A DNA stretch of 64,000 bases from an uncultured Eubacteriales bacterium (GCA_963767415.1 CAVYEU010000022.1:15885-79884), one strand, 5' to 3'. Numbered from the stretch's first letter, positions 4,859 through 35,013 are shown. Notes: a model not told the origin generated them from the letters alone. Numbers and translations: made by a program.

Positions 4859-5476
4859 TCAGATCTGAGCAAAATTATTTTCTAAAAATAAATCGATAAT
4901 ATTTTTTCCATCTTCAAAACCATTTTTATATAAAGCATCTCTAATAAGGCTGTCTTTATGATTATTTGCTTCTTCGTATTCATAGAGAAGCACTTGACTG
5001 TCTTTAGGTAGTTTTTCGAGAATCTGTTTTTGCAGTTCAATTATTTTTTTATTTAGGTCTTTATGCAGTTCACTCTCATTTATAGCTTCATATGAAATTT
5101 CTTCTACTCTTAGCCCAATAAAGTGTTCCACATATTCCTTAAACTGTTCCTGGATAGCTTCTTTAGGCTTAATTCCAGTTGCATTTGTTTTTAAAACATT
5201 TATAAAAATCATTCCCTCTTTAAGCCCTTTTAAATAAAAGCTGTCTGCAATAATACTTTCTAAACAGGTAATTTTTGATTTTATTTCATCTAAACATTTT
5301 TCAAAAAATTCTAAATTTTCGTTTAACACTACGGTCTTAATCTTAAACAGTTCTACCTGAAACTGTGCCATAAAATCTTTATATTCCTTATCTGCTTCTT
5401 CAAAATTACTCCAATTAGAATCTACCCTCGAAAATATAAATTCCTTAAAAGGCTCCTCAAACTTTTCTTTACACAT
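4859..5476 (-). CDS. hypothetical protein (packaging operon)
   Basis: 205 aa ORF with an ATG start after a GGAGGAGG RBS, co-oriented between the terS-like gene and terL. No motif recognised. Confidence 0.5.
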   Translation of the reverse strand: MCKEKFEEPFKEFIFSRVDSNWSNFEEADKEYKDFMAQFQVELFKIKTVVLNENLEFFEKCLDEIKSKITCLESIIADSFYLKGLKEGMIFINVLKTNATGIKPKEAIQEQFKEYVEHFIGLRVEEISYEAINESELHKDLNKKIIELQKQILEKLPKDSQVLLYEYEEANNHKDSLIRDALYKNGFEDGKNIIDLFLENNFAQI

Positions 5477-5805
5477 ATAAATTCCTCCTCCAAAAATATT
5501 TTTTGAAAGAGAATTTAAAAAGGTGCAATAGCAGGTTTAAACCCTACACATGCACCTTTTTGTATAAAAAAGTTGAAATTATAAGCATAACTAAGTTATA
5601 ATAGCTTCTGGGTCGCTATGATAGCTTTTAAATGCTATACGTGTAGGTAGTTCCTAAACTGTTTTACCTGCATGTGCTTTGTCAGTGTTATCAGCACTGA
5701 CAAGACATGGTGACCTCTTAAAATTCTCTAACAATGATCATTATAATTATATCTTAGACTATATGCAACATCTTTTTGGTAATTTTGCCCTGTTTTAATC
5801 TTTGC

Positions 5806-6462
5806 CTATAAGTCCTTTTCTTCCTGATCTTTGGGTTCAACAACTTCGTTAAATTCTGTATCAGACATACTATTAACTTTTTTAGTAAGCCAAACAGAAT
5901 TTTGTTTTATGCGAAGCTTATCTAAAATAGGATTCAGAGCTTGAGGAGCTACATCATGGACAGTCTCAAGCACAATTTCCATAAATTTTTTAACATTCTC
6001 AAAATCGTTGATCTGTTTTTGCATTTCAGTCATTTGTTTCAACAAAACCCTCATTTCAGAACATAACGCTTTATATGATTTTGTATTTATTGTTCCGTTA
6101 CTTTCTGCTGCTTTATTTTCCATGTTAATCAGCAAAGTCTTGGTACGGTTATAAAGAAGCAGAGTTTCGTCTATAATATCAACTTGCTTATTCATTACCT
6201 TCAATAGCCGTCTTTTATCCTGATGCAGCAAATGTTTTTTTACTTCGGGTATCTTTTTTAGAAATCTCTCAACAGTCCAAAGTTTAATTTCATCATCTGA
6301 AGGTACAAGACCAGATATATTTAATTTCTCAGCTATTTCCTGATAAGTTAAATGTTCTTCTTCCCGAAGTCTAATTGCCATTTCTTCGAGTTTATACTTT
6401 TCAATTTTAGATTTACAGGTAGTATGAACCATTGATGTGGCCTTATTTACACGCTTTCCCAT
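5806..6462 (-). CDS. putative terminase small subunit (HTH protein)
   Basis: 218 aa with an N-terminal helix-turn-helix (LTYQEIAEKLNISG) followed by a coiled-coil region. Lies upstream of terL in the same orientation, with a GAGAGGTGA RBS. Confidence 0.45.
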   Translation of the reverse strand: MGKRVNKATSMVHTTCKSKIEKYKLEEMAIRLREEEHLTYQEIAEKLNISGLVPSDDEIKLWTVERFLKKIPEVKKHLLHQDKRRLLKVMNKQVDIIDETLLLYNRTKTLLINMENKAAESNGTINTKSYKALCSEMRVLLKQMTEMQKQINDFENVKKFMEIVLETVHDVAPQALNPILDKLRIKQNSVWLTKKVNSMSDTEFNEVVEPKDQEEKDL

Positions 6463-6469
6463 ATAATTT

Positions 6470-6637
6470 TCACCTCTCTTTTAATAAATCAGTAACTAAT
6501 TTTCTTTTCTTAGCAGAGCTATAGGATTTTGATTTATCTCTTTCCCATAGCTTATTTAATTCTGGATCAACTTTTAATTGTATGGCATTTAAAACTGTAT
6601 TGCTCTCCAACAAGGTATTATAGCTACAATTTTTCAT
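6470..6637 (-). CDS. small hypothetical protein (55 aa)
   Basis: Own translation, below the ORF-track size cutoff: MKNCSYNTLLESNTVLNAIQLKVDPELNKLWERDKSKSYSSAKKRKLVTDLLKER. AAGGAG lies upstream. Its stop overlaps the RBS of the terS-like gene. Confidence 0.3.
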   Translation of the reverse strand: MKNCSYNTLLESNTVLNAIQLKVDPELNKLWERDKSKSYSSAKKRKLVTDLLKER

Positions 6638-16560: not shown

Positions 16561-16718
16561 TAATTACCCAAAGATTATTAATAATTGCAATAGTCTAATA
16601 AACCAGATAAGAACTATATTTTAAGGTGGTAATGTGTGTGTTTGCAAAAAAAATTTTTAGGCCCCTCTTAAAAAATAAGGTTTTATTTCGTATATCAACT
16701 ATGTTAGGGGGGAATAGG

Positions 16719-19700
16719 ATGATATACGCAGAACAGATGGGGCAATGGATTAAAATAAACTTTAAAGCAGACACTGCCACCTTTAAAACAATTGTTACAA
16801 TTTTAAAAACTATTAACGGTAAATTTTTTAATCCAGATAAAAAATTTTGGAGTATTCCTTACTCAAAAAAGGATGAGTTTGAATCCAAATTTTCAAAATT
16901 CCTTATAATTTGGGCAGACGGACGAAATACCAAAGGTAAAAAGGATTGGGGTGTGCCTTGTGACTCCACAATAATTCCTTATGGCTTTAAGGTAAAACCC
17001 TTTGCACACCAGATAGAAGGATTTAATGTAATGGTATCTCAAAAAGCCCTGATTCTTGCAGATGAAATGGGTGCAGGAAAATGCTTAGACAAGCATTCCT
17101 ACGCTCAAGTTAATGATGAAGCTATGACGATGGAAGAATTATGGGAAAAGTATGCAGACACATCTACACTTACCTACGATGATGAAGGAGGAGAATGGGC
17201 TGATTCTAAAGAAAAGCTTATCGTACCATCATTAAATGGTGAAGGTAAACTTGTTAAACAAGAAATAGTAAGGCTTTATAGACAAAGAGTATCGGAAAAT
17301 TTAACAAAAGTATCAACTGTTGGGGGTTATTACGCAACAATAACAAAAAGGCATCAGCTTTTAAGTGAAAATGGCTGGTCTAATAAAATCGGTAATTTTA
17401 TTTCAGGTGTTTCTTATCTACCAGAAGGGAATAGAAAACTTGATAGTGATATATTGGAGCTAATAGCTTGGTCACTGACAGAAGGTTATGAGAGAAGACA
17501 AAATGCAATGATAATCACCCAAAAAGATAAGGAACTATTAAGATCACTAGCTGCTTTAGTTTGTAAAATTGATTTTAAGTATAATCTGGATATCAGCCCG
17601 CAAGTCAAATATTCAAAAAATGGATGTTTCCAGCTATATATATGTGGAAAGAAATTCAAGAACTTTCTTGTTGATATGGGGTATGCATGGAATACAAATT
17701 CTGCTCACAGAAGTATTCCAACAATAATTCAACAATTAGACAATGAACATTTAGCTTTATTTTTAAGACATGTTTTTGATGCTGAAGGATCAGTAGGCAA
17801 GAATTTAATGGAGATAACTTTAGCTTCAGAAAAAATGCTAAATCAAATTGCTTATTTACTTTTACGTTTTGGTATACACATGACAATCCACAATAAAGAG
17901 TCTATGGCATATAACGGTAAAAGAATTAAAAGAACTTATTTTAGGGGAAATATCTGCGGAGATGAAGCAAGAAAATTTAAAGAACTTATCGGATTCAATA
18001 CGGGATATAAATCAAGATTACTTGATGAATTATGTGATAGACCTTCAAATCCTAATATTGATGTTATACCTACATTAAAGCTATTACAGGAATTTAAAGA
18101 AGTAACAAATTTACCTATGCTGCATTTTTGCACTCATGCAATTTATATCAAGTCACAGAATTGTTCTCGTGATTCTGCTAAAAAGGTTATAGCTTTATTA
18201 GATAAAATTATTAGTGGAGAAACCCTTGAAAAATATAAGTTGTTAGCACGTTCAAAGTGGACAGATGCTACTTTAGAAGCATATGAAAAACTCGATATTA
18301 ATTACGTTATTGAAGCCAGAAACAAAATTCAAAATATGCTTGATAAAGATTTATTGTATTTAAAAGTAACTAAAGTTGAAGATATTTGGTATGATGATTA
18401 TGTTTATGACTTAGAAGTAAAGGACACTCATAATTTTGTAGGCGGTGTTGGTGGACTTATGCTGCATAACACTGTTCAAGCCCTTACCGCTATGGAAGCA
18501 AGATATTTATTGGGTCAGATAAAAAGGGTATTAATTATTACAAAAGCATCTCTTACTTACAACTGGCAAAATGAGGCAGCCAAGTTTACCAGACAAAAAG
18601 CTGTTGTTTTAGGTGGCTCAAAAAATGAACGAATGAAACAGTATGCTGATTTATACTATGACAAAAAAACCTTATTTTTTATTACAAGTTATGAAACTTA
18701 CAGAAATGATTACTTCCATTTCCAACAGTTCTATTGGAGTGCCATGATCCTGGACGAATCACAAAAAGTAAAGGGTTGGAACACTAAAATCGGTGAATTG
18801 ATTCATGAAATAGATGCCGATTATAAATATGCTTTAACAGGAACACCTATAATAAATACACCATTAGAAGCATATAACATTTTAAAATGGTTAGGTGTCG
18901 AAAAACGCGACTGGTGGACTTTTAGAAACAGATATGCTGTTTTGGGTGGTTTTAATGACAAGGAAATTGTCGGGTATAAGAATTTGCCTGAGTTACAACA
19001 AAAAATTCAGAATGTTTTACTTAGAAGATTAAAAGAGGATGTTTTAGACCTTCCTCCTAAAATTAGGCAAGTTGTACTTTTAGAAATGACAGCTTCACAA
19101 AAGAAAGTATATAAAAATGTTAAAGCTGGCATCATTAATGAAACTTTAGGAGCTATGCAAACTGGAGAGATACATCCTTTAGTTGAACTTATCAGGCTTA
19201 AGCAATGTACATCATCAATCAGGATTTTTGAAGGGATTGAGGTTTCAGATGATGAGCATTCAGTTAAAATAAATACACTTAAAGAATATTTAGAAGATAT
19301 TTGCATTAGCAATAAAGCTGTAGTTTTTACACAATTTAAAACTGTAGTAAAAATACTTTTAAAGGATAAAGAAATTTTAAAGTATAACCCGGCTGTAATA
19401 ACTGGTGATGTTCATTCAGCTGCCAGAGCTGGAGAAAATACCTCAGATCGACAAAGGCAAGTTGACAAATTCCAAAACGATTCCTCTTGCCGCCTTTTTA
19501 TCGGAACACTCGGTTCTTGCAGGGAAGGATTGACTTTAACTGAAGGTAATTATGTATTTTTCTTAGATGAAGAATGGGCTGAAGCTTACAACCAGCAGGG
19601 GGAAGATCGATGCATGAGAATCGGGCAACAAAAGACAGTTAATATCTATAGATTTAGGTGCAAGGATACTATTGATGAGATTATAGGGCAGGTATTACTT

Positions 19701-19799
19701 GGAAAAGAAGAAATGTTTGATAATATTATTGATATGAAAAGTAGCGGAGCGACACCTAAAATGAAAACATTATTGCAGGATATTTTGAAAGTCGGATAA
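16719..19799 (+). CDS. SNF2-family helicase interrupted by an intein
   Basis: The track ORF starts at 16626, but GGGGGGAATAGG followed by ATG at 16719 is the likely start. HQ..G, DEMGAGK[intein]TVQALTAME, LDESQKVK (DExx box) and QGEDRCMRIGQ (motif VI) give the SNF2 motif series. Confidence 0.85.
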   Translation: MIYAEQMGQWIKINFKADTATFKTIVTILKTINGKFFNPDKKFWSIPYSKKDEFESKFSKFLIIWADGRNTKGKKDWGVPCDSTIIPYGFKVKPFAHQIEGFNVMVSQKALILADEMGAGKCLDKHSYAQVNDEAMTMEELWEKYADTSTLTYDDEGGEWADSKEKLIVPSLNGEGKLVKQEIVRLYRQRVSENLTKVSTVGGYYATITKRHQLLSENGWSNKIGNFISGVSYLPEGNRKLDSDILELIAWSLTEGYERRQNAMIITQKDKELLRSLAALVCKIDFKYNLDISPQVKYSKNGCFQLYICGKKFKNFLVDMGYAWNTNSAHRSIPTIIQQLDNEHLALFLRHVFDAEGSVGKNLMEITLASEKMLNQIAYLLLRFGIHMTIHNKESMAYNGKRIKRTYFRGNICGDEARKFKELIGFNTGYKSRLLDELCDRPSNPNIDVIPTLKLLQEFKEVTNLPMLHFCTHAIYIKSQNCSRDSAKKVIALLDKIISGETLEKYKLLARSKWTDATLEAYEKLDINYVIEARNKIQNMLDKDLLYLKVTKVEDIWYDDYVYDLEVKDTHNFVGGVGGLMLHNTVQALTAMEARYLLGQIKRVLIITKASLTYNWQNEAAKFTRQKAVVLGGSKNERMKQYADLYYDKKTLFFITSYETYRNDYFHFQQFYWSAMILDESQKVKGWNTKIGELIHEIDADYKYALTGTPIINTPLEAYNILKWLGVEKRDWWTFRNRYAVLGGFNDKEIVGYKNLPELQQKIQNVLLRRLKEDVLDLPPKIRQVVLLEMTASQKKVYKNVKAGIINETLGAMQTGEIHPLVELIRLKQCTSSIRIFEGIEVSDDEHSVKINTLKEYLEDICISNKAVVFTQFKTVVKILLKDKEILKYNPAVITGDVHSAARAGENTSDRQRQVDKFQNDSSCRLFIGTLGSCREGLTLTEGNYVFFLDEEWAEAYNQQGEDRCMRIGQQKTVNIYRFRCKDTIDEIIGQVLLGKEEMFDNIIDMKSSGATPKMKTLLQDILKVG
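17082..18470 (+). mobile_element. intein with LAGLIDADG homing-endonuclease domain, inserted in the helicase P-loop
   Basis: 463 codons starting with Cys directly after GAGK and ending LMLHN immediately before Thr (the +1 nucleophile). Block-B-like TKRH, two LAGLIDADG-like blocks (LIAWSLTEGYE and FLRHVFDAEGSV), and block F/G VYDLEVKDTHNFV...LHN. Excision restores DEMGAGKTVQAL. Confidence 0.8.
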
Positions 19800-26630: not shown

Positions 26631-26640
26631 TACTATGAAA

Positions 26641-26685
26641 AAAGGCTTACAAAAACTTCTGTCCCTTTTTGTAAGCCTTTTTATT
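26641..26685 (+). terminator. rho-independent terminator
   Basis: AAAGGCTTACAAAAA (26641-26655) pairs with TTTTTGTAAGCCTTT (26666-26680) and is followed by a T-rich tail. Lies between the SSB-like gene and polA. Confidence 0.6.
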
Positions 26686-26715
26686 AACTCAAATATTCTG
26701 TAAGGAGTGAATAAC

Positions 26716-29700
26716 TTGAAAAATTATATTGAACTTCAGAATTTAAGAAAAGAGCTTAAAGTAACTCGTAAGGCTGTTGCAGAAGCAATAGGACTTAAAA
26801 ATGCAGTTAAATTATCCAAGTTTGAAGCTGGAGAAGAAGACAAATTGACTGAAGAACAAATTAACGCTTATGAATTATTTTTAGAAAGTATTCCTAATAA
26901 AAATAGGGATTCTAAATCTTCTACTGTAAAAACAGAATTAAATGTACCAACTCTTGAAGAATCTAAGGAAAAGGCTAAAAAAGATAAAGAAAAAAGAACA
27001 AGTCCTCCGTTAAAGAAGCTTATTACAAAGAATGAGGAACTCAAACAGATATCCGATTCTTTAGTCTTACCGAGAAATTTTATAACGGTAGATAATATAG
27101 ACTTATTGAATCAGTGTGTACAGGAATTATCTCAAGAAGAAGTTCGAATATTAGATACTGAAACTTATGGCTCTGACTCAAAGCAAGCCAAGAATCCGAA
27201 TCTGGCAAAGTTTTGCGGATTATCTTTGTGGCTTCCAACAGTAGATAAAGGTTATTGGATTCCTATTGCTTCAGAATATATGAAGTGTTTAGAACCTAGT
27301 ATTGTAAGAAATGCATTAAAACCTGTGTTAAATAATGATTCCAACAGATTCGGTAATTCATGCTTTGTTCAACGAAAAATACGAAAAAACGGTATAGTTA
27401 CAATAGAGAAAATAGAAGTACCTTATAAATTAGTAACTCATAACTATAAATTTGATGCTCATGTTATGAGACATTTTGGAATAGACCTACCTCATGCATG
27501 GTTTGATACTCTAATATGCTCATGGCTTTTAGATGAAAATGATGATCATAATTTAAAGGCACTCTGGAATAAATATTGCTGCAAGGATATTAGCGAAAGT
27601 GCTGATAAATTCAATAAACTATTTGGCAGTATAACCATGAATAAGGTTTATCCGAATATTGCAACTAATTATTCTATAAAAGATGTAAAAATGACTTATG
27701 AATTAATGCTATTTCAGAAGGAACAGCTTGATAATAACAAATTATGTGTAAAAATAGCAGATTTGTTTTGGAATAGAGAAATGCCAGTATTATCTATAGC
27801 TTATGCTGCTGAAAAACAAGGGCTAAGAGTTGATGTAGAATATTTAAGAAATATTGTTTCTCCCAAATTACACAAGGAATGTTCTGAAATATATGATAAA
27901 ATTCTTGAAATTTATGTTCGGGAAGGTCTGAAAGTACCTGAGAATAAAATTGCTGCAGCAATGGAAGAACACAGGTTACGTCAGATATTTAAAAAAGATG
28001 GAGTACCTTATGCTGTTTCTAAAAATGTTGGCTTCAATTTAAACAGTAATCCTCAAAAACAGGAACTTGTATGGGATATGTTAAAGCTTACTCCTCCGAA
28101 ACAACCAAGCAGAAAGAAAGAGGATATCCGAAGTCTAAATTCAAAAAAAGTGTTAAAGAAAATTAGAAAGCAACACTCAATAATTGAATTATTGATGAAA
28201 TATAACACTGCGAATAAGCTTGCCAGTGCTTTTGCTGATGCCTTGCCTAAATCCGTTATTTTATGCTCTGATGGTGTATATAGGGTTTTCCCAAATATAA
28301 ACTCCGCAGGAACAAAAACAGGCAGACAAAGTTGTACTAATCCTAATCTACAACAAATGCCTGCCAGAGTTGGAGAATTAATAAGAAATGCTTTTATTGC
28401 AGAAGAGAAAAGGTTATTACTGGCTGTGGATTATAATCAACAGGAGCTGAGAGTACTTGCCGATATTTCTGAAGATGAAGTATTAACTAAAGCCTTTTTT
28501 GACAAAAAAGATATTCACTCTCTCACAGCTTCAACCGTTTTATCACAGCAGTTAAGTTCTTTTAAAAAAACATTGGAACAATCAATTGAAAATTTAAGCA
28601 AAAGTAATACTGAAATTGCTGAAATATCTAAATTGGTTGCTGGAGTAGAAAAGGAATTATATTTAATTTCAGAGGATGAAATCAACAACCGGGTTAAGGT
28701 CTTGAAGGCAATGCCAAATGAACAACTTATCTCTGAAATTCAAAATAGACTTGATAATTTAGGATACCATTTTACTTACGGTCAAAGCTATGAAATATTT
28801 GAAATGATCCGCAATAAATTAACCCGAATAGTAGTATCCGAAAAAAGTGACAGCAAAGAAGTTGAAAAAACTGTTGGTATACATCCTGTTGAAGAAAGTA
28901 TTAATAACTTTCCATATGCTGACCCAAAATATATAAATTCACTTTATAAAATGGCATCCTCCCTCCCTGATGAAACAATGCTTGAATTATCACATTTTTT
29001 TGAGAAGCAAAGAAAGAACGCTAAAATACTTAATTTCGGTATTGTTTATGGTATGAGTAAATATGGTTTGGCAGATGCCCTTGAAATTGATACCGATACT
29101 GCACAATCATTTATTACAGGGTATTTGTCAGGATACAAAGGAATTATGAGAACTATGTACTTAACACATGAAGAAATGAAGAAAACTACTTTTGTGGAGA
29201 ATAAAGCTGGACGTAAACGCCGTTTCTATAATGAATTTGATAAGATGTATAATGATAAAAGCATGAAATGGCTTCTTGGCTCTTGTCAAAGGCAATCTTT
29301 CAATTTCAAGGTTCAATCTTATTCTGCTGATATGACAAAACAGGCTATGATTGATGTTCAACCGATTTTAGAACGGATTGGCGGTATTATTTTAATGGCT
29401 ATCCACGATGAAATATTATTTTCTGTACCAGCTACTATAACTCAAAATGATATTAAGGAATTAAGAGAAGCTATGCAAAATGCTATACCTCTTTGTGTTC
29501 CTATGACCTCTGATGCTGAAATAGGGCGAAAATGGGGTGAATGTAAGGCTGTATCTGAAATTGCAGATTTTTTAAGCTTGATTGAAGAACTCGATGATAG
29601 TGAAAGAAATGATAATACTACAGTTCTTGATGAAGAATCTGGCTTAGATACAAGCTATTTTGATACTGAAGGGGTCAAAGAAGATGAATTAAATAATGCC

Positions 29701-30348
29701 AATGAAAATGCTATTATGCTTAAAGCAGACAAGGAGGATCAAGTCAAAATGGGAATAGAAATGCTTCAAAACGAAATATTGACTATAAAAAATAAAAATA
29801 TTAGAGATGTCATAACGGAAGTACTTCAAAATGCTCCCACCTATTTTTGGGAGATACCAGCATCCAGCACTGGCAAACATCATCCCGAATATGCTTTAAA
29901 AGAGAATGGCCTCGTAAATCATATTCGAGCAGGAATAATGCTAATTGAAGATACTTTTAAAAATAATACAATTATGAATGTATTCTTTCCCGAAGGTCAC
30001 TCGGAGCTTATAAAGGATTGTATTAGAGGTGCTTATTTGATTCATGATTGTTGCAAAAGTGGTTTAGATAATGTTCCTGTTCCTCATACATGTATTGAGC
30101 ATCCCTTATTAGTCAAGGAATTAACTAAAAAAATAAAGAAATCAACCATAATGAAATTGTCAGAACAAGAAAGGTCTTGTCTGTCATATATGATGGGTGC
30201 AGTCGAGAAACATATGGGGGAATGGATTACAGATTGCAAAGGAAATAAAATTCTCGATACTCCTAAGAATGGGTTAGAAAAATTTATTCATATGGTAGAT
30301 TACTATGCTTCCCGAAAATTCCTTGAAGTAAATTTTGAAGTAAAATAA
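26716..30348 (+). CDS. polA: family A DNA polymerase with N-terminal HTH, 3'-5' exonuclease, fingers insertion and C-terminal HD domain
   Basis: TTG at 26716 is 8 nt after AAGGAG; the track uses GTG at 26707. Exo motifs are ILDTET, NYKFDAHVM and YSIKDVKMTY. Pol motif A is VDYNQQELRVLA, motif B is RKNAKILNFGIVYG and motif C is AIHDEILF. The C-terminal PASSTGKHHPEY...HDCCK resembles phage HD phosphohydrolase domains. Confidence 0.85.
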   Translation: MKNYIELQNLRKELKVTRKAVAEAIGLKNAVKLSKFEAGEEDKLTEEQINAYELFLESIPNKNRDSKSSTVKTELNVPTLEESKEKAKKDKEKRTSPPLKKLITKNEELKQISDSLVLPRNFITVDNIDLLNQCVQELSQEEVRILDTETYGSDSKQAKNPNLAKFCGLSLWLPTVDKGYWIPIASEYMKCLEPSIVRNALKPVLNNDSNRFGNSCFVQRKIRKNGIVTIEKIEVPYKLVTHNYKFDAHVMRHFGIDLPHAWFDTLICSWLLDENDDHNLKALWNKYCCKDISESADKFNKLFGSITMNKVYPNIATNYSIKDVKMTYELMLFQKEQLDNNKLCVKIADLFWNREMPVLSIAYAAEKQGLRVDVEYLRNIVSPKLHKECSEIYDKILEIYVREGLKVPENKIAAAMEEHRLRQIFKKDGVPYAVSKNVGFNLNSNPQKQELVWDMLKLTPPKQPSRKKEDIRSLNSKKVLKKIRKQHSIIELLMKYNTANKLASAFADALPKSVILCSDGVYRVFPNINSAGTKTGRQSCTNPNLQQMPARVGELIRNAFIAEEKRLLLAVDYNQQELRVLADISEDEVLTKAFFDKKDIHSLTASTVLSQQLSSFKKTLEQSIENLSKSNTEIAEISKLVAGVEKELYLISEDEINNRVKVLKAMPNEQLISEIQNRLDNLGYHFTYGQSYEIFEMIRNKLTRIVVSEKSDSKEVEKTVGIHPVEESINNFPYADPKYINSLYKMASSLPDETMLELSHFFEKQRKNAKILNFGIVYGMSKYGLADALEIDTDTAQSFITGYLSGYKGIMRTMYLTHEEMKKTTFVENKAGRKRRFYNEFDKMYNDKSMKWLLGSCQRQSFNFKVQSYSADMTKQAMIDVQPILERIGGIILMAIHDEILFSVPATITQNDIKELREAMQNAIPLCVPMTSDAEIGRKWGECKAVSEIADFLSLIEELDDSERNDNTTVLDEESGLDTSYFDTEGVKEDELNNANENAIMLKADKEDQVKMGIEMLQNEILTIKNKNIRDVITEVLQNAPTYFWEIPASSTGKHHPEYALKENGLVNHIRAGIMLIEDTFKNNTIMNVFFPEGHSELIKDCIRGAYLIHDCCKSGLDNVPVPHTCIEHPLLVKELTKKIKKSTIMKLSEQERSCLSYMMGAVEKHMGEWITDCKGNKILDTPKNGLEKFIHMVDYYASRKFLEVNFEVK

Positions 30349-33902: not shown

Positions 33903-35013
33903 ATGGCTAAAAAAGAACCCATTGTAAAGGAATGTGAATTAACTATTCAATCACAGGAATCAAATAAAGAACTTGAAAGAGAAAGTCTTATTAAGCAAGT
34001 TGAAGCTGAATATGGTAAGGGAGCTATATTTCTTTTAGGCAAAAAGCAAGCTACAGAATGGGAATTTCGTTCAACCGGGTCTATTGGTCTTGATATAGCC
34101 TGTGGAGGAGGAATTCCCAAAGGAGCACCAATTGTAATTCATGGTGCTGAAGGAGTTGGCAAATCATCAATTGCATGTATGATTTGTGCAGAAGCCCAAA
34201 AAAATGGTGAAGAGATATTCATTGTTGAACCAGAACAAGCTTTTAATCCAAATTGGGCAAGAAAATTAGGAATGTATATACCTCAAAATGAATTTGATAA
34301 ATACCCAGAGGGATATGGAGGAGTTTGGTTTCATCAGCCTTGCAGTCCTGCAGAAGATACATTGGATTTTATTGAATTCTTAGTTGACACAAAAAAATAT
34401 GGAATTATCGTACTTGATTCTATACCCGCATTAGTTACAAAAGCTGAAATTGATGGAGGCTTTGCAGACAGACAAGTTGGAGAACAAGCCAGACTTGTTG
34501 CTAAAGCAATGAGAAAATTAGTTTGGACAGGGAAGCTAAGAAATTCAGGAACTTCACTTATTTGTATCAATCAAATCAGGGATAAGATAGGAACTATATT
34601 CGGTGGAACTGAATCAACCGGGTGGCAGAGCATTAAAATTTGCAGCTATTGAGGATATCGAGGTTTATTCTGTTGGTTCTATAGAAGTAGGAGAAGACGG
34701 AAAGAAGAAAAAAATTGGTCAAAAAGTAGGTTGTAAACTCACAAAAAATAAATGTGCTCCTCCATACAGAACAACTGAATTTTCACTTTATTATGAACAA
34801 GGTATAGATAGGCTTGAAGAAGCTGTTACAATAGGTTCTATGCTTAATATTATTGATGTTAAAGGCTCTTGGTATCAATTTTTAGATAAAGCCAGCGGAG
34901 AAATTGTTATAGATAAGGTTCAAGGCAAAGAGAAATTTAAACAATCTATGATTGATGTACCAGAAAAATATCTTAAATTGCTAAATTCAATCAATTTAAT
35001 TATCAGAGAATAA
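33903..35013 (+). CDS. recA: RecA recombinase, interrupted by a frameshift near 34619-34623
   Basis: ORF 33903-34652 carries Walker A (GAEGVGKSS), VLDSIPAL and INQIRDKIGTIFGG. ORF 34603-35013 continues GGRALKFAA...KNKCAPPYRTTEF in the +1 frame. Removing one base in ACCGGGTGGC restores TESTGGRALKF. Confidence 0.8.

Follow-up and report, generated by a model that had tools for sequence, protein, structure and literature searches.

A phage family-A DNA polymerase joined through an acidic linker to a C-terminal YhaM-like HD domain

Results

We analysed a window of 64,000 nucleotides from an uncultured Eubacteriales bacterium, covering positions 15885-79884 of a 93,089-bp contig (CAVYEU010000022.1) that is the largest in a 2.63-Mb, 116-contig assembly (GCA_963767415.1). 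On the plus strand, positions 26716-30348 hold one gene with a strong ribosome-binding site, which encodes a protein of 1210 amino acids (aa), hereafter the query. Both the listing of open reading frames (ORFs) and the translation bear out the single ORF described in a first-pass annotation of this DNA, and the three strings quoted there are all present in the translation. We identify the protein as the replicative family-A DNA polymerase (PolA) of a siphovirus-like phage or prophage of about 90 kb. It is a genuine, well-formed composite replicase, in which a polymerase with its own proofreader is followed by an acidic linker and an HD domain (Table 1), and it is mainly a functional lead.

Table 1 Features of the composite polymerase gene and its upstream flank, in window coordinates
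Feature	Residues	Position	Strand	Remarks
Terminator-like hairpin between the SSB gene and polA		26639-26682	+	perfect 17-bp stem, then U-run
Shine-Dalgarno AAGGAG		26702-26707	+	8 nt 5' of TTG 26716
Probable XRE-type helix-turn-helix	1-60	26716-26895	+	weak Pfam matches, low-pLDDT helices
Basic helical N-terminal region	61-118	26896-27069	+	second half clade-conserved
3'-5' proofreading exonuclease domain	119-340	27070-27735	+	Exo I/II/III intact
Polymerase thumb, palm and first part of fingers	341-604	27736-28527	+	motif A D572
Helical insertion at fingers tip, motif A-B interval	605-760	28528-28995	+	enlarged clade-wide insertion
Fingers O-helix and palm	761-945	28996-29550	+	motif B R766, K770, F774, Y778; motif C H897, D898, E899
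Acidic linker	946-1011	29551-29748	+	21 Asp+Glu, 5 Lys+Arg, pI 4.1
Internal AAGGAGG		29731-29737	+	11 nt 5' of in-frame ATG 29749 (M1012)
YhaM-like HD domain	1012-1210	29749-30345	+	ligands H1069, H1110-D1111, H1129, H1166, D1195; invariant H1056

The fusion of PolA and HD domain is very probably real. The stretch ahead of the C-terminal domain is indeed acidic, as first annotated, and begins with SEIADFLSLIEE, a start that the query has in common with a second fusion, P0123; linker residues 967-990 are predicted to be disordered. All 66 linker residues are open in the polymerase frame only, frames 1 and 2 being full of stops. P0123 (508 aa) comes from another assembly, on two contigs of which the longest has 92,466 bp, and holds the end of PolA, a linker and an HD domain in one ORF. 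Its PolA part runs from motif C to the PolA end, is 41% identical to the query and keeps the same SE[IV]xDF[LM]xLIE junction; next come a Cys-rich linker (about 230 aa) and an HD domain 40% identical to that of the query. The P0123 reading frame opens inside the polymerase, so it probably represents the final fragment of a split polA. A tree of the HD family (70 sequences) unites both fused HD domains (P0001, the query, and P0123) with the free protein P0122 in a single clade (support 0.889). The P0123 linker also contains several zinc-ribbon-like CxC/CxxC pairs (residues ~95-200), as against the purely acidic stretch of the query.

Near its end the linker carries an AAGGAGG motif followed by an in-frame ATG (Table 1), and the N-termini of free HD homologues align exactly where this methionine, M1012, lies. 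AAGGAGG occurs six times on the plus strand of the window. Motif and ATG are either left over from an HD gene that was once separate or function as an internal start, and their retention suggests that the polA stop codon was lost recently. Judged by this arrangement, the internal start is possibly used, in which case a free HD protein would be produced alongside the fusion.

The first-pass annotation had itself raised the prospect that a sequencing error merged two adjacent genes. Such an artefact, in which neighbouring polA and free HD genes were joined through a missed stop or an indel in the linker, is very improbable in our view. It would account for the intact ribosome-binding motif and ATG ahead of the HD part and for the full-length fusion being a singleton in length-restricted searches with both HD domains, and a miscount in the T6 run at 29569-29574 would end polA roughly where its relatives end. 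Two observations count against the fusion: fused forms number just two, of which one is partial, and recA, from this very assembly and contig, has a frameshift, which makes indel errors possible. Against an artefact, frame 0 stays open over the approximately 58 linker codons from the T6 run to M1012, and frames 1 and 2 are stop-rich; at this base composition we estimate about 0.08 stops per codon, which gives an open frame a chance of roughly 1%. The linker is moreover acidic in the manner of the C-terminal tails of the closest PolA relatives, and P0123, from its separate assembly, repeats the order of PolA end, linker and HD domain with a conserved junction.

The recA gene (window 33903-35013, plus strand) is read as two overlapping ORFs of 249 and 136 aa. 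The shift of frame falls between '...GTES' and 'PGGRALKF' and looks like the effect of a single additional base near 34610-34620. A genuine pseudogene, programmed frameshifting or an indel from assembly could each explain this split, which touches on the sequence quality of the contig.

Searches for further fusions covered several collections. A word-index search with the query HD among proteins of 665-2118 aa returned only the query itself, and one with the P0123 HD among proteins of 890-2540 aa returned none, which is weak evidence. Scanning JGI metagenomes with alignment A4 gave one locus with the PolA end only, an IMG/VR scan with P0123 found no fusion, and a scan of GTDB genomes gave one locus with a free 193-aa HD protein and no fusion. 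Among 149 genomes of the same order, the HD family is present in two, including the query genome; the other copy is a free frame of 207 aa.

The last 199 residues of the query constitute a confident HD fold. The AlphaFold2 (AF2) model of the domain has a predicted local distance difference test score (pLDDT) of 96.5 and a predicted template modelling score of 0.91. In a Foldseek search of the PDB, the cryo-EM structure of YhaM (9h3f_A) was the sole match at E ≤ 0.001 (5.2e-4, probability 1.00), and a Foldseek-independent structure search with VIA again placed YhaM first (Z 15.4, root-mean-square deviation 3.8, 169 residues aligned), the next chain having Z 9.2. The remainder of the structure list consists mostly of HD folds: exopolyphosphatase C-domains, phosphodiesterases, the HD domain of GlyRS, SAMHD1, Cas3-HD, PgpH and HD-GYP. 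A profile of the family matches YhaM/Cbf1 chains at 4.8e-8 and 3.9e-7, in an alignment that begins upstream of the HD core and includes a PA[AS]S..H motif. The Pfam HD model (PF01966) gave no match at E ≤ 10 for residues 979-1210 and none at E ≤ 0.01 for residues 990-1210, and it matches 49 of 61 aligned family members (best 5.4e-9). The HD-type assignment of the first reading thus stands, and its opposite, a C-terminal region without an HD fold, does not.

By sequence comparison the domain belongs to a large phage family, SPO1 gp32.6/phrog_5889, whose members are normally free proteins of about 190 aa. The query HD matches phrog_5889 (annotated as function unknown) at 1.9e-42. An exhaustive phmmer search with residues 990-1210 returned 1475 clusters (50% identity) at E ≤ 0.001, 632 at ≤ 1e-10 and 13 at ≤ 1e-30; among the best 149 non-self matches, 90 proteins have at most 235 aa, 56 have 236-330 aa and three are longer. 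The family occurs in at least 563 IMG/VR stretches as well as in the model phage SPO1. Identity to the query HD is 33-45% and all invariant residues are held in common, the difference being that the gp32.6/phrog_5889 proteins are small and separate whereas the query HD is the C-terminus of a polymerase.

The metal site is complete. Ten residues are invariant in 61 members (H67, G76, H80, H121, D122, H140, P141, H177, D206 and S210 in the numbering of the HD fragment, to which 989 is added for protein numbering), and among them H80, H121-D122, H140, H177 and D206 make up the full six-ligand H..HD..H..H..D pattern. Six conserved residues in this pattern are described as diagnostic of a dinuclear HD site, and the HD phosphodiesterases and nucleases tabulated in the same source (Cas3, Cas10, phosphodiesterases, PgpH) are dinuclear, with two HD-GYP entries trinuclear (PMC8177086). 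HD phosphatases are characterised there by a strictly conserved Arg shortly ahead of the first His, typically at -3 (PMC8177086). In our family, position -3 before the first metal-binding His is a Leu conserved in at least 90% of members, and position -1 is Arg in the consensus and Asn in the query, so that the phosphatase Arg is absent from -3 and, in the query, also from -1. One member, P0140 (450 aa), has a tandem HD module whose second copy shows HR in place of the HD dyad and changes in other ligands; by its sequence this copy is probably a degenerate, inactive partner domain.

Gene contexts of the family are suggestive of a nucleic-acid role. The extra domains recognised among 62 longer members are ExoX-like_C (eight), HARP (three), HTH_40 (two), and one each of a topoisomerase zinc ribbon, DUF3072 and a PolA end. 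In SPO1, polA is followed after about 2 kb by the gene for gp32.6, which has SSB on its upstream side and an exonuclease and a ligase on its downstream side; the HD copy of phage c-st lies upstream of a replicative helicase and primase. For a broader view, the top 80 of at least 563 IMG/VR matches were made non-redundant at 70% identity, which left 30 loci. Replication or recombination genes were present within two genes of the HD gene at 13 of the 30 (SSB, polymerase, clamp, ligase, annealing proteins, exonucleases, ERCC4 nuclease and primase), nucleotide-metabolism genes at four, and both at two. On one IMG/VR phage (L134), two adjacent HD-family genes, one of them a 143-aa piece, lie at 5086-5514 and 5896-6558, directly upstream of nrdD/nrdG.

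We also looked for an HD gene beside polA in relatives, a check proposed with the first annotation. None was found at 77 IMG/VR loci of PolA relatives with flanks of up to 10 kb, some shorter, and the SPO1 control locus was positive in the same check.

The polymerase and proofreading parts of the query are intact. DNA_pol_A (PF00476) matches at 2.7e-81 over two stretches (273.9 bits against a cut-off of 34.3) and DNA_pol_A_exo1 (PF01612) at 2.7e-12 (47.3 bits against 23.6); in a PDB search the Klenow fragment matched at 1.5e-53, and Taq structures at about 1e-53 too. We aligned 57 PolAs, namely the query, its nine closest relatives and 47 bacterial Pol I proteins. The Exo I/II/III residues D147, E149, D247, Y319 and D323 are each at least 90% conserved, as are F774 (motif B) and E899 (motif C), and D572 of motif A, R766, K770, Y778 and G779 of motif B, and H897 and D898 of motif C are invariant. 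These matches confirm the three Exo and three Pol motifs of the first-pass annotation, and on the strength of the conserved residues proofreader and polymerase should both be active. The protein falls below the cut-offs of the bacterial Pol I equivalogs (PRK05755, 353.6 bits against 720; TIGR00593, 315.4 against 600) and has no 5_3_exonuc domain in Pfam. No phage-borne 5' nuclease was found either, the assembly's sole PF02739 match being a 907-aa ORF on another contig (C88). Cultured phages are distant: all 3088 matching phage records have less than 60% identity, and none covers 80% of the query. Its closest matches, with 36-39% identity, are nine PolAs of 730-819 aa from metagenomes or genomes, and in the alignment with them K100, K101, K105 and P119 of the N-terminal region and its border are invariant in the clade.

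The interval between motifs A and B is expanded. Counted from the Asp of motif A to the Lys of motif B, there are 198 residues in the query, 113-151 in the nine closest relatives and 44-55, mostly 53, in the 47 bacterial Pol I proteins, in agreement with the spacing first noted (about 190 against about 50). The extra segment had been placed at 28550-28995; its end holds, and its start is better set at about 28528. The insertion is not peculiar to this protein, and here the reading changes: a shorter form occupies the same site in all nine closest relatives. Y692, F695, R699 and L743 are common to the clade, and relatives P0005 and P0009 share part of the query's extra helical segment. On this alignment, the fingers insertion is a mark of the clade, merely enlarged in the query. 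The AF2 model shows it as a run of helices of moderate confidence (pLDDT ~43-87). An intein, already doubted in the first annotation for lack of boundaries, was rejected: no intein, LAGLIDADG or HNH Pfam family matched 28540-29010 at E ≤ 10, the model is helical and the segment is partly conserved in relatives, and the same scan method did detect an intein in the SNF2 gene of the window.

Two smaller lineage-specific inserts were seen, one of about 27 aa in the exonuclease domain (residues ~206-236) and a thumb-tip insert of about 40 aa (residues ~403-445) that lacks Cys and is modelled with low confidence. At the thumb-tip site, four of the nine closest relatives (P0006, P0007, P0008 and P0011) carry a Cys-rich, zinc-ribbon-like CPKC...C.CG insert (A1 columns ~437-470). 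With phmmer, no paralogue of the N-terminal 100 residues or of the fingers insertion was found at E ≤ 0.01 in the genome and the retrieved loci.

The N-terminal segment is a probable XRE-type helix-turn-helix (HTH), as first proposed. Residues 6-52 match HTH_31, HTH_3 and HTH_19, three families of one Pfam clan, at E 0.0014-0.013, yet the scores of 19.3, 17.2 and 15.8 bits all lie under the gathering scores of 27, 23 and 30.2. The best match in the Atlas (0.87) is to small phage HTH_3 proteins and is a lead only. AF2 places helices at residues 2-13, 18-24, 28-35 and 46-58, an HTH-like spacing, with pLDDT 29-56; confidence is low because no homologue covers residues 1-60. The segment is absent from all nine closest PolA relatives. 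It would bind DNA, and its role may be autoregulation, origin targeting or the binding of a partner.

The ORF listing opens the gene at GTG 26707, and the start at 26716 given in the first-pass annotation is an in-frame TTG. The TTG is the likelier start, because it follows AAGGAG at a distance of 8 nt and the GTG overlaps that motif. Other in-frame starts up to residue 189 are TTG44, with a weak GGAG, and TTG131, TTG171 and ATG189, which have no ribosome-binding site and lie within the clade-conserved region or the exonuclease domain. With no strong alternative up to residue 189, the N-terminal extension belongs to the polymerase. The hairpin upstream of polA folds at -18.8 kcal/mol (z -7.5), and none of 200 shuffled sequences folded equally well; a strict terminator scan returned none, its loop limit being 8 nt against the 10 nt of this hairpin.

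The surrounding contig has a G+C content of 32.7%, similar to the remainder of the assembly, and codes for tape-measure protein, major head protein, portal, large terminase and integrase in PHROG scans, together with a ThyX-type thymidylate synthase, a dUTPase and sigma factors. Its replication block comprises, as listed, an SNF2 helicase with an intein, a DnaC-like loader, DnaB, a DnaG-type primase, a sigma factor, SSB, PolA, a Dam methylase, a PD-(D/E)XK (Cas4-like) exonuclease, an endonuclease, RecA and a resolvase. The SNF2-family helicase (1057 aa, window 16626-19799, plus strand) is split by an intein that carries a homing endonuclease of the LAGLIDADG type (Intein_splicing 2.2e-13, LAGLIDADG_3 5.9e-17). 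Three large ORFs of 1402, 236 and 1018 aa at 38065-42973 and 47810-50863 on the minus strand show repeated matches to phrog_9049 and phrog_9262, both annotated as function unknown, and are possibly repeat-rich surface or host-interaction proteins. The final ~60 bases of contig C22 are very G+C-rich, against 32% elsewhere, and may be chimeric or adapter-like.

Discussion

The best explanation overall, to which we assign a probability of about 0.5, is that the HD domain acts on DNA or RNA ends as a two-metal phosphodiesterase tethered by the replicative polymerase. It is favoured because the nearest relative is YhaM, the six-ligand site is complete, the phosphatase Arg is absent and the family's fusions are DNA-directed. 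YhaM acts specifically on single-stranded DNA as a Mn-dependent 3' exonuclease and is known as a 3'-5' exoribonuclease too; it combines an oligonucleotide-binding (OB) fold with an HD domain that has an extended H..HD..HH..D two-metal site (PMC12107432). We infer the substrate (DNA or RNA ends and not free nucleotides), the polarity and the biological role from sequence and predicted structure.

Such an enzyme could have arisen from an ancestor like the 730-820-aa polymerases of the closest relatives, with a conserved basic N-terminal helix region, a proofreader, helices inserted at the tip of the fingers, and a tail rich in acidic residues. It would then have gained an XRE-like HTH at the N-terminus and a larger fingers insertion, and a free-standing HD gene downstream would have been fused to it in frame, whereby the former acidic tail would have become the linker and the ribosome-binding site and ATG of the HD gene would have been kept inside the ORF. 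YhaM holds single-stranded nucleic acid with its OB fold; here the polymerase may take over as the DNA tether. The HD domain would then work on nucleic-acid 3' ends at the fork or on recombination intermediates, trimming 3' single-stranded tails or RNA/DNA ends or removing 3' blocking groups, as a second end-processing activity alongside the DnaQ-type proofreader.

Several observations pull the other way. The link to YhaM is remote, at 14-16% identity, and the NCBIfam YhaM model (NF010007) scores 13.7 bits against a cut-off of 460; the OB fold, which YhaM needs for substrate binding, is absent. YqeK, the dinuclear exception among nucleotide enzymes, is a nucleotide diphosphatase, so the metal pattern alone leaves the substrate unfixed (PMC8177086). 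An intact proofreader is already present, and the need for a second 3' exonuclease is not obvious. Within the family, 46 of the 62 longer members show no recognisable extra domain, 17 of the 30 IMG/VR loci have no neighbour for replication or recombination, and in phage early regions genes for replication and for nucleotides are intermingled anyway. As none of the 77 relative loci carries an HD gene, the link between the HD family and the PolA clade is not general. Every match in BFVD is an uncharacterised or generically named HD protein.

A broader proposal, which we hold tentatively, is that the gp32.6/phrog_5889 proteins are general, hitherto unrecognised accessories of the phage replisome: YhaM-type two-metal nucleases or phosphoesterases without the OB fold, whose tether varies (ExoX-type tail, HARP, zinc ribbon, HTH or polymerase), the query being a replicase with two chemically distinct 3'-end editors in a single chain. 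The HD domain might then clear 3' ends beyond the reach of the DnaQ-type proofreader, such as 3'-phosphates, damaged or blocked termini and RNA ends, and the internal ribosome-binding site would also yield free HD protein.

The first-pass annotation had suggested that the fusion links dNTP pool editing or modified-nucleotide handling to replication. Stated as a rival, the HD domain would hydrolyse free deoxynucleoside triphosphates or monophosphates (dNTPs, dNMPs) beside the polymerase, excluding a canonical base or sanitising the pool. The cultured phages with a homologue include many of the SPO1/CP-51 type of Bacillus (27 of 44 records are from Bacillus), and these carriers of the family count as hydroxymethyluracil phages. 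Nucleotide-metabolism neighbours at four of the 30 loci, and SAMHD1 and dNTPase structures among the weaker fold matches, also speak for such an enzyme. SPO1 and SP8 are described as hydroxymethyluracil phages, and such phages have dTTPase and dTMPase activities whose genes go unnamed in the cited passages (PMC8989533). There are well-known HD phosphohydrolases with dNTPs and dNMPs as substrates (PMC8177086), and DatZ is a phage HD dATPase that works with a phage polymerase (PMC8065100).

We nevertheless regard a pool enzyme as unlikely and the weaker reading. The dNTP/dNMP phosphatases YfbR, YGK1, YpgQ, SAMHD1 and EF1143 are tabulated as mononuclear (PMC8177086), whereas the site here is of the six-ligand dinuclear kind, with Leu and, in the query, Asn where the phosphatase Arg would be expected. 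The nearest relative is a nuclease, far above every other HD structure, and family relatives are fused to DNA-binding modules. The contig makes dTMP through ThyX and dUTPase, and PHROG scans of it gave no PurZ-like or dUMP-hydroxymethylase match; no modified-base gene was seen. The DpoZ model (NF038380) scores 113.1 bits, far under its cut-off of 500, and with no PurZ-like match in the same scans a Z-genome/DpoZ system was rejected.

A primarily structural role, in which the HD domain multimerises the polymerase or recruits partners and catalysis is secondary, appears improbable as the whole answer. YhaM hexamerises through its HD domain in a metal-dependent manner (PMC12107432), and DatZ is a D3 hexamer as is the HD assembly of YhaM (PMC8065100, PMC12107432); the metal ligands, however, are invariant in the family and present in the query, which argues for retained catalysis. 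Scaffolding and end processing are not mutually exclusive. Degradation of a cyclic or linear nucleotide immune signal as an anti-defence measure is most improbable: dinuclear HD enzymes do include cyclic-nucleotide and cyclic-dinucleotide phosphodiesterases (PMC8177086), whose catalytic domains are among the fold matches at Z 7-9, but these lie far below YhaM, and fusion to a polymerase and DNA modules within a replication module has no obvious logic for signal degradation. In PADLOC, neither the HD part nor the N-terminal segment nor the insertion gave a family at E ≤ 0.01, and a defence-system HD was set aside.

Among known systems, YhaM/Cbf1 of Bacillus subtilis and Staphylococcus aureus (PDB 9H3F, 9O7T) is the best profile and structural match; in common are the two-metal ligands H..HD..H..H..D and, ahead of the HD core, the PA[AS]S..H motif. 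It differs in its N-terminal OB fold, its length of about 314 aa and an HH where the phage family has H-M; it is also cellular and LexA-regulated (PMC12107432), whereas the query HD hangs on a polymerase. Other decorated PolAs (the N4-like fusion with uracil-DNA glycosylase, helicase and primase fusions, the T7 thioredoxin-binding domain and the phiKMV thumb insertion) resemble the query in joining a Klenow-type core to ordered insertions and an extra DNA-repair-type domain. For the glycosylase fusion, a 'second editing mode' has been considered as a possibility (PMC10201439). The PolA fusions listed in that source are N-terminal and the query HD is C-terminal; its account of insertions mentions none that is helical, 60-145 aa long and placed between motifs A and B, and its main text contains none of the terms 'phosphohydrolase', 'C-terminal domain' and 'helix-turn-helix', although the supplementary cluster tables could still list such a fusion (PMC10201439).

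DatZ of cyanophage S-2L is, like the query HD, a phage HD enzyme coupled functionally to a replicase, and differs in being a free protein of the YfbR/OxsA type with Arg19 before the first His and a PurZ (Z-genome) context (PMC8065100). It is not among the 50 entries listed in the structure search, which leaves a likeness to DatZ possible. A precedent for an HD fusion comes from group 1 Bacillus jumbo phages, in which an HD domain is joined to the C-terminal part of an RNA polymerase beta-like subunit (PMC7824862); the partner there is an RNA polymerase, not a DNA polymerase. In the literature searched on family-A or Pol I polymerases with an HD domain and on phage HD phosphohydrolases, the portions consulted report no PolA-HD fusion, and the literature found on HD-domain phosphohydrolases does not mention SPO1. 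The parts of the query are all of known kinds (PolA, HD superfamily, XRE HTH), and what is new is their combination and its implication for the gp32.6 family.

Conclusions

The fusion serves as a 'Rosetta stone', tying a large and uncharacterised phage HD family to a replicative polymerase and giving it a testable function. Enzyme engineers may also find practical interest in natural polymerase-nuclease chimeras of this sort and in the enlarged helical insertion of the fingers. If the HD domain is a nucleotide hydrolase, the protein would be a covalent version of the partnership between DatZ and a polymerase. If it is a 3'-end nuclease or phosphoesterase, this family-A replicase would possess, beyond its proofreader, another editing or cleaning activity that is not of the DnaQ type, and it would add a C-terminal accessory-domain fusion of a kind unlisted in the text of the 2023 PolA reclassification (PMC10201439).

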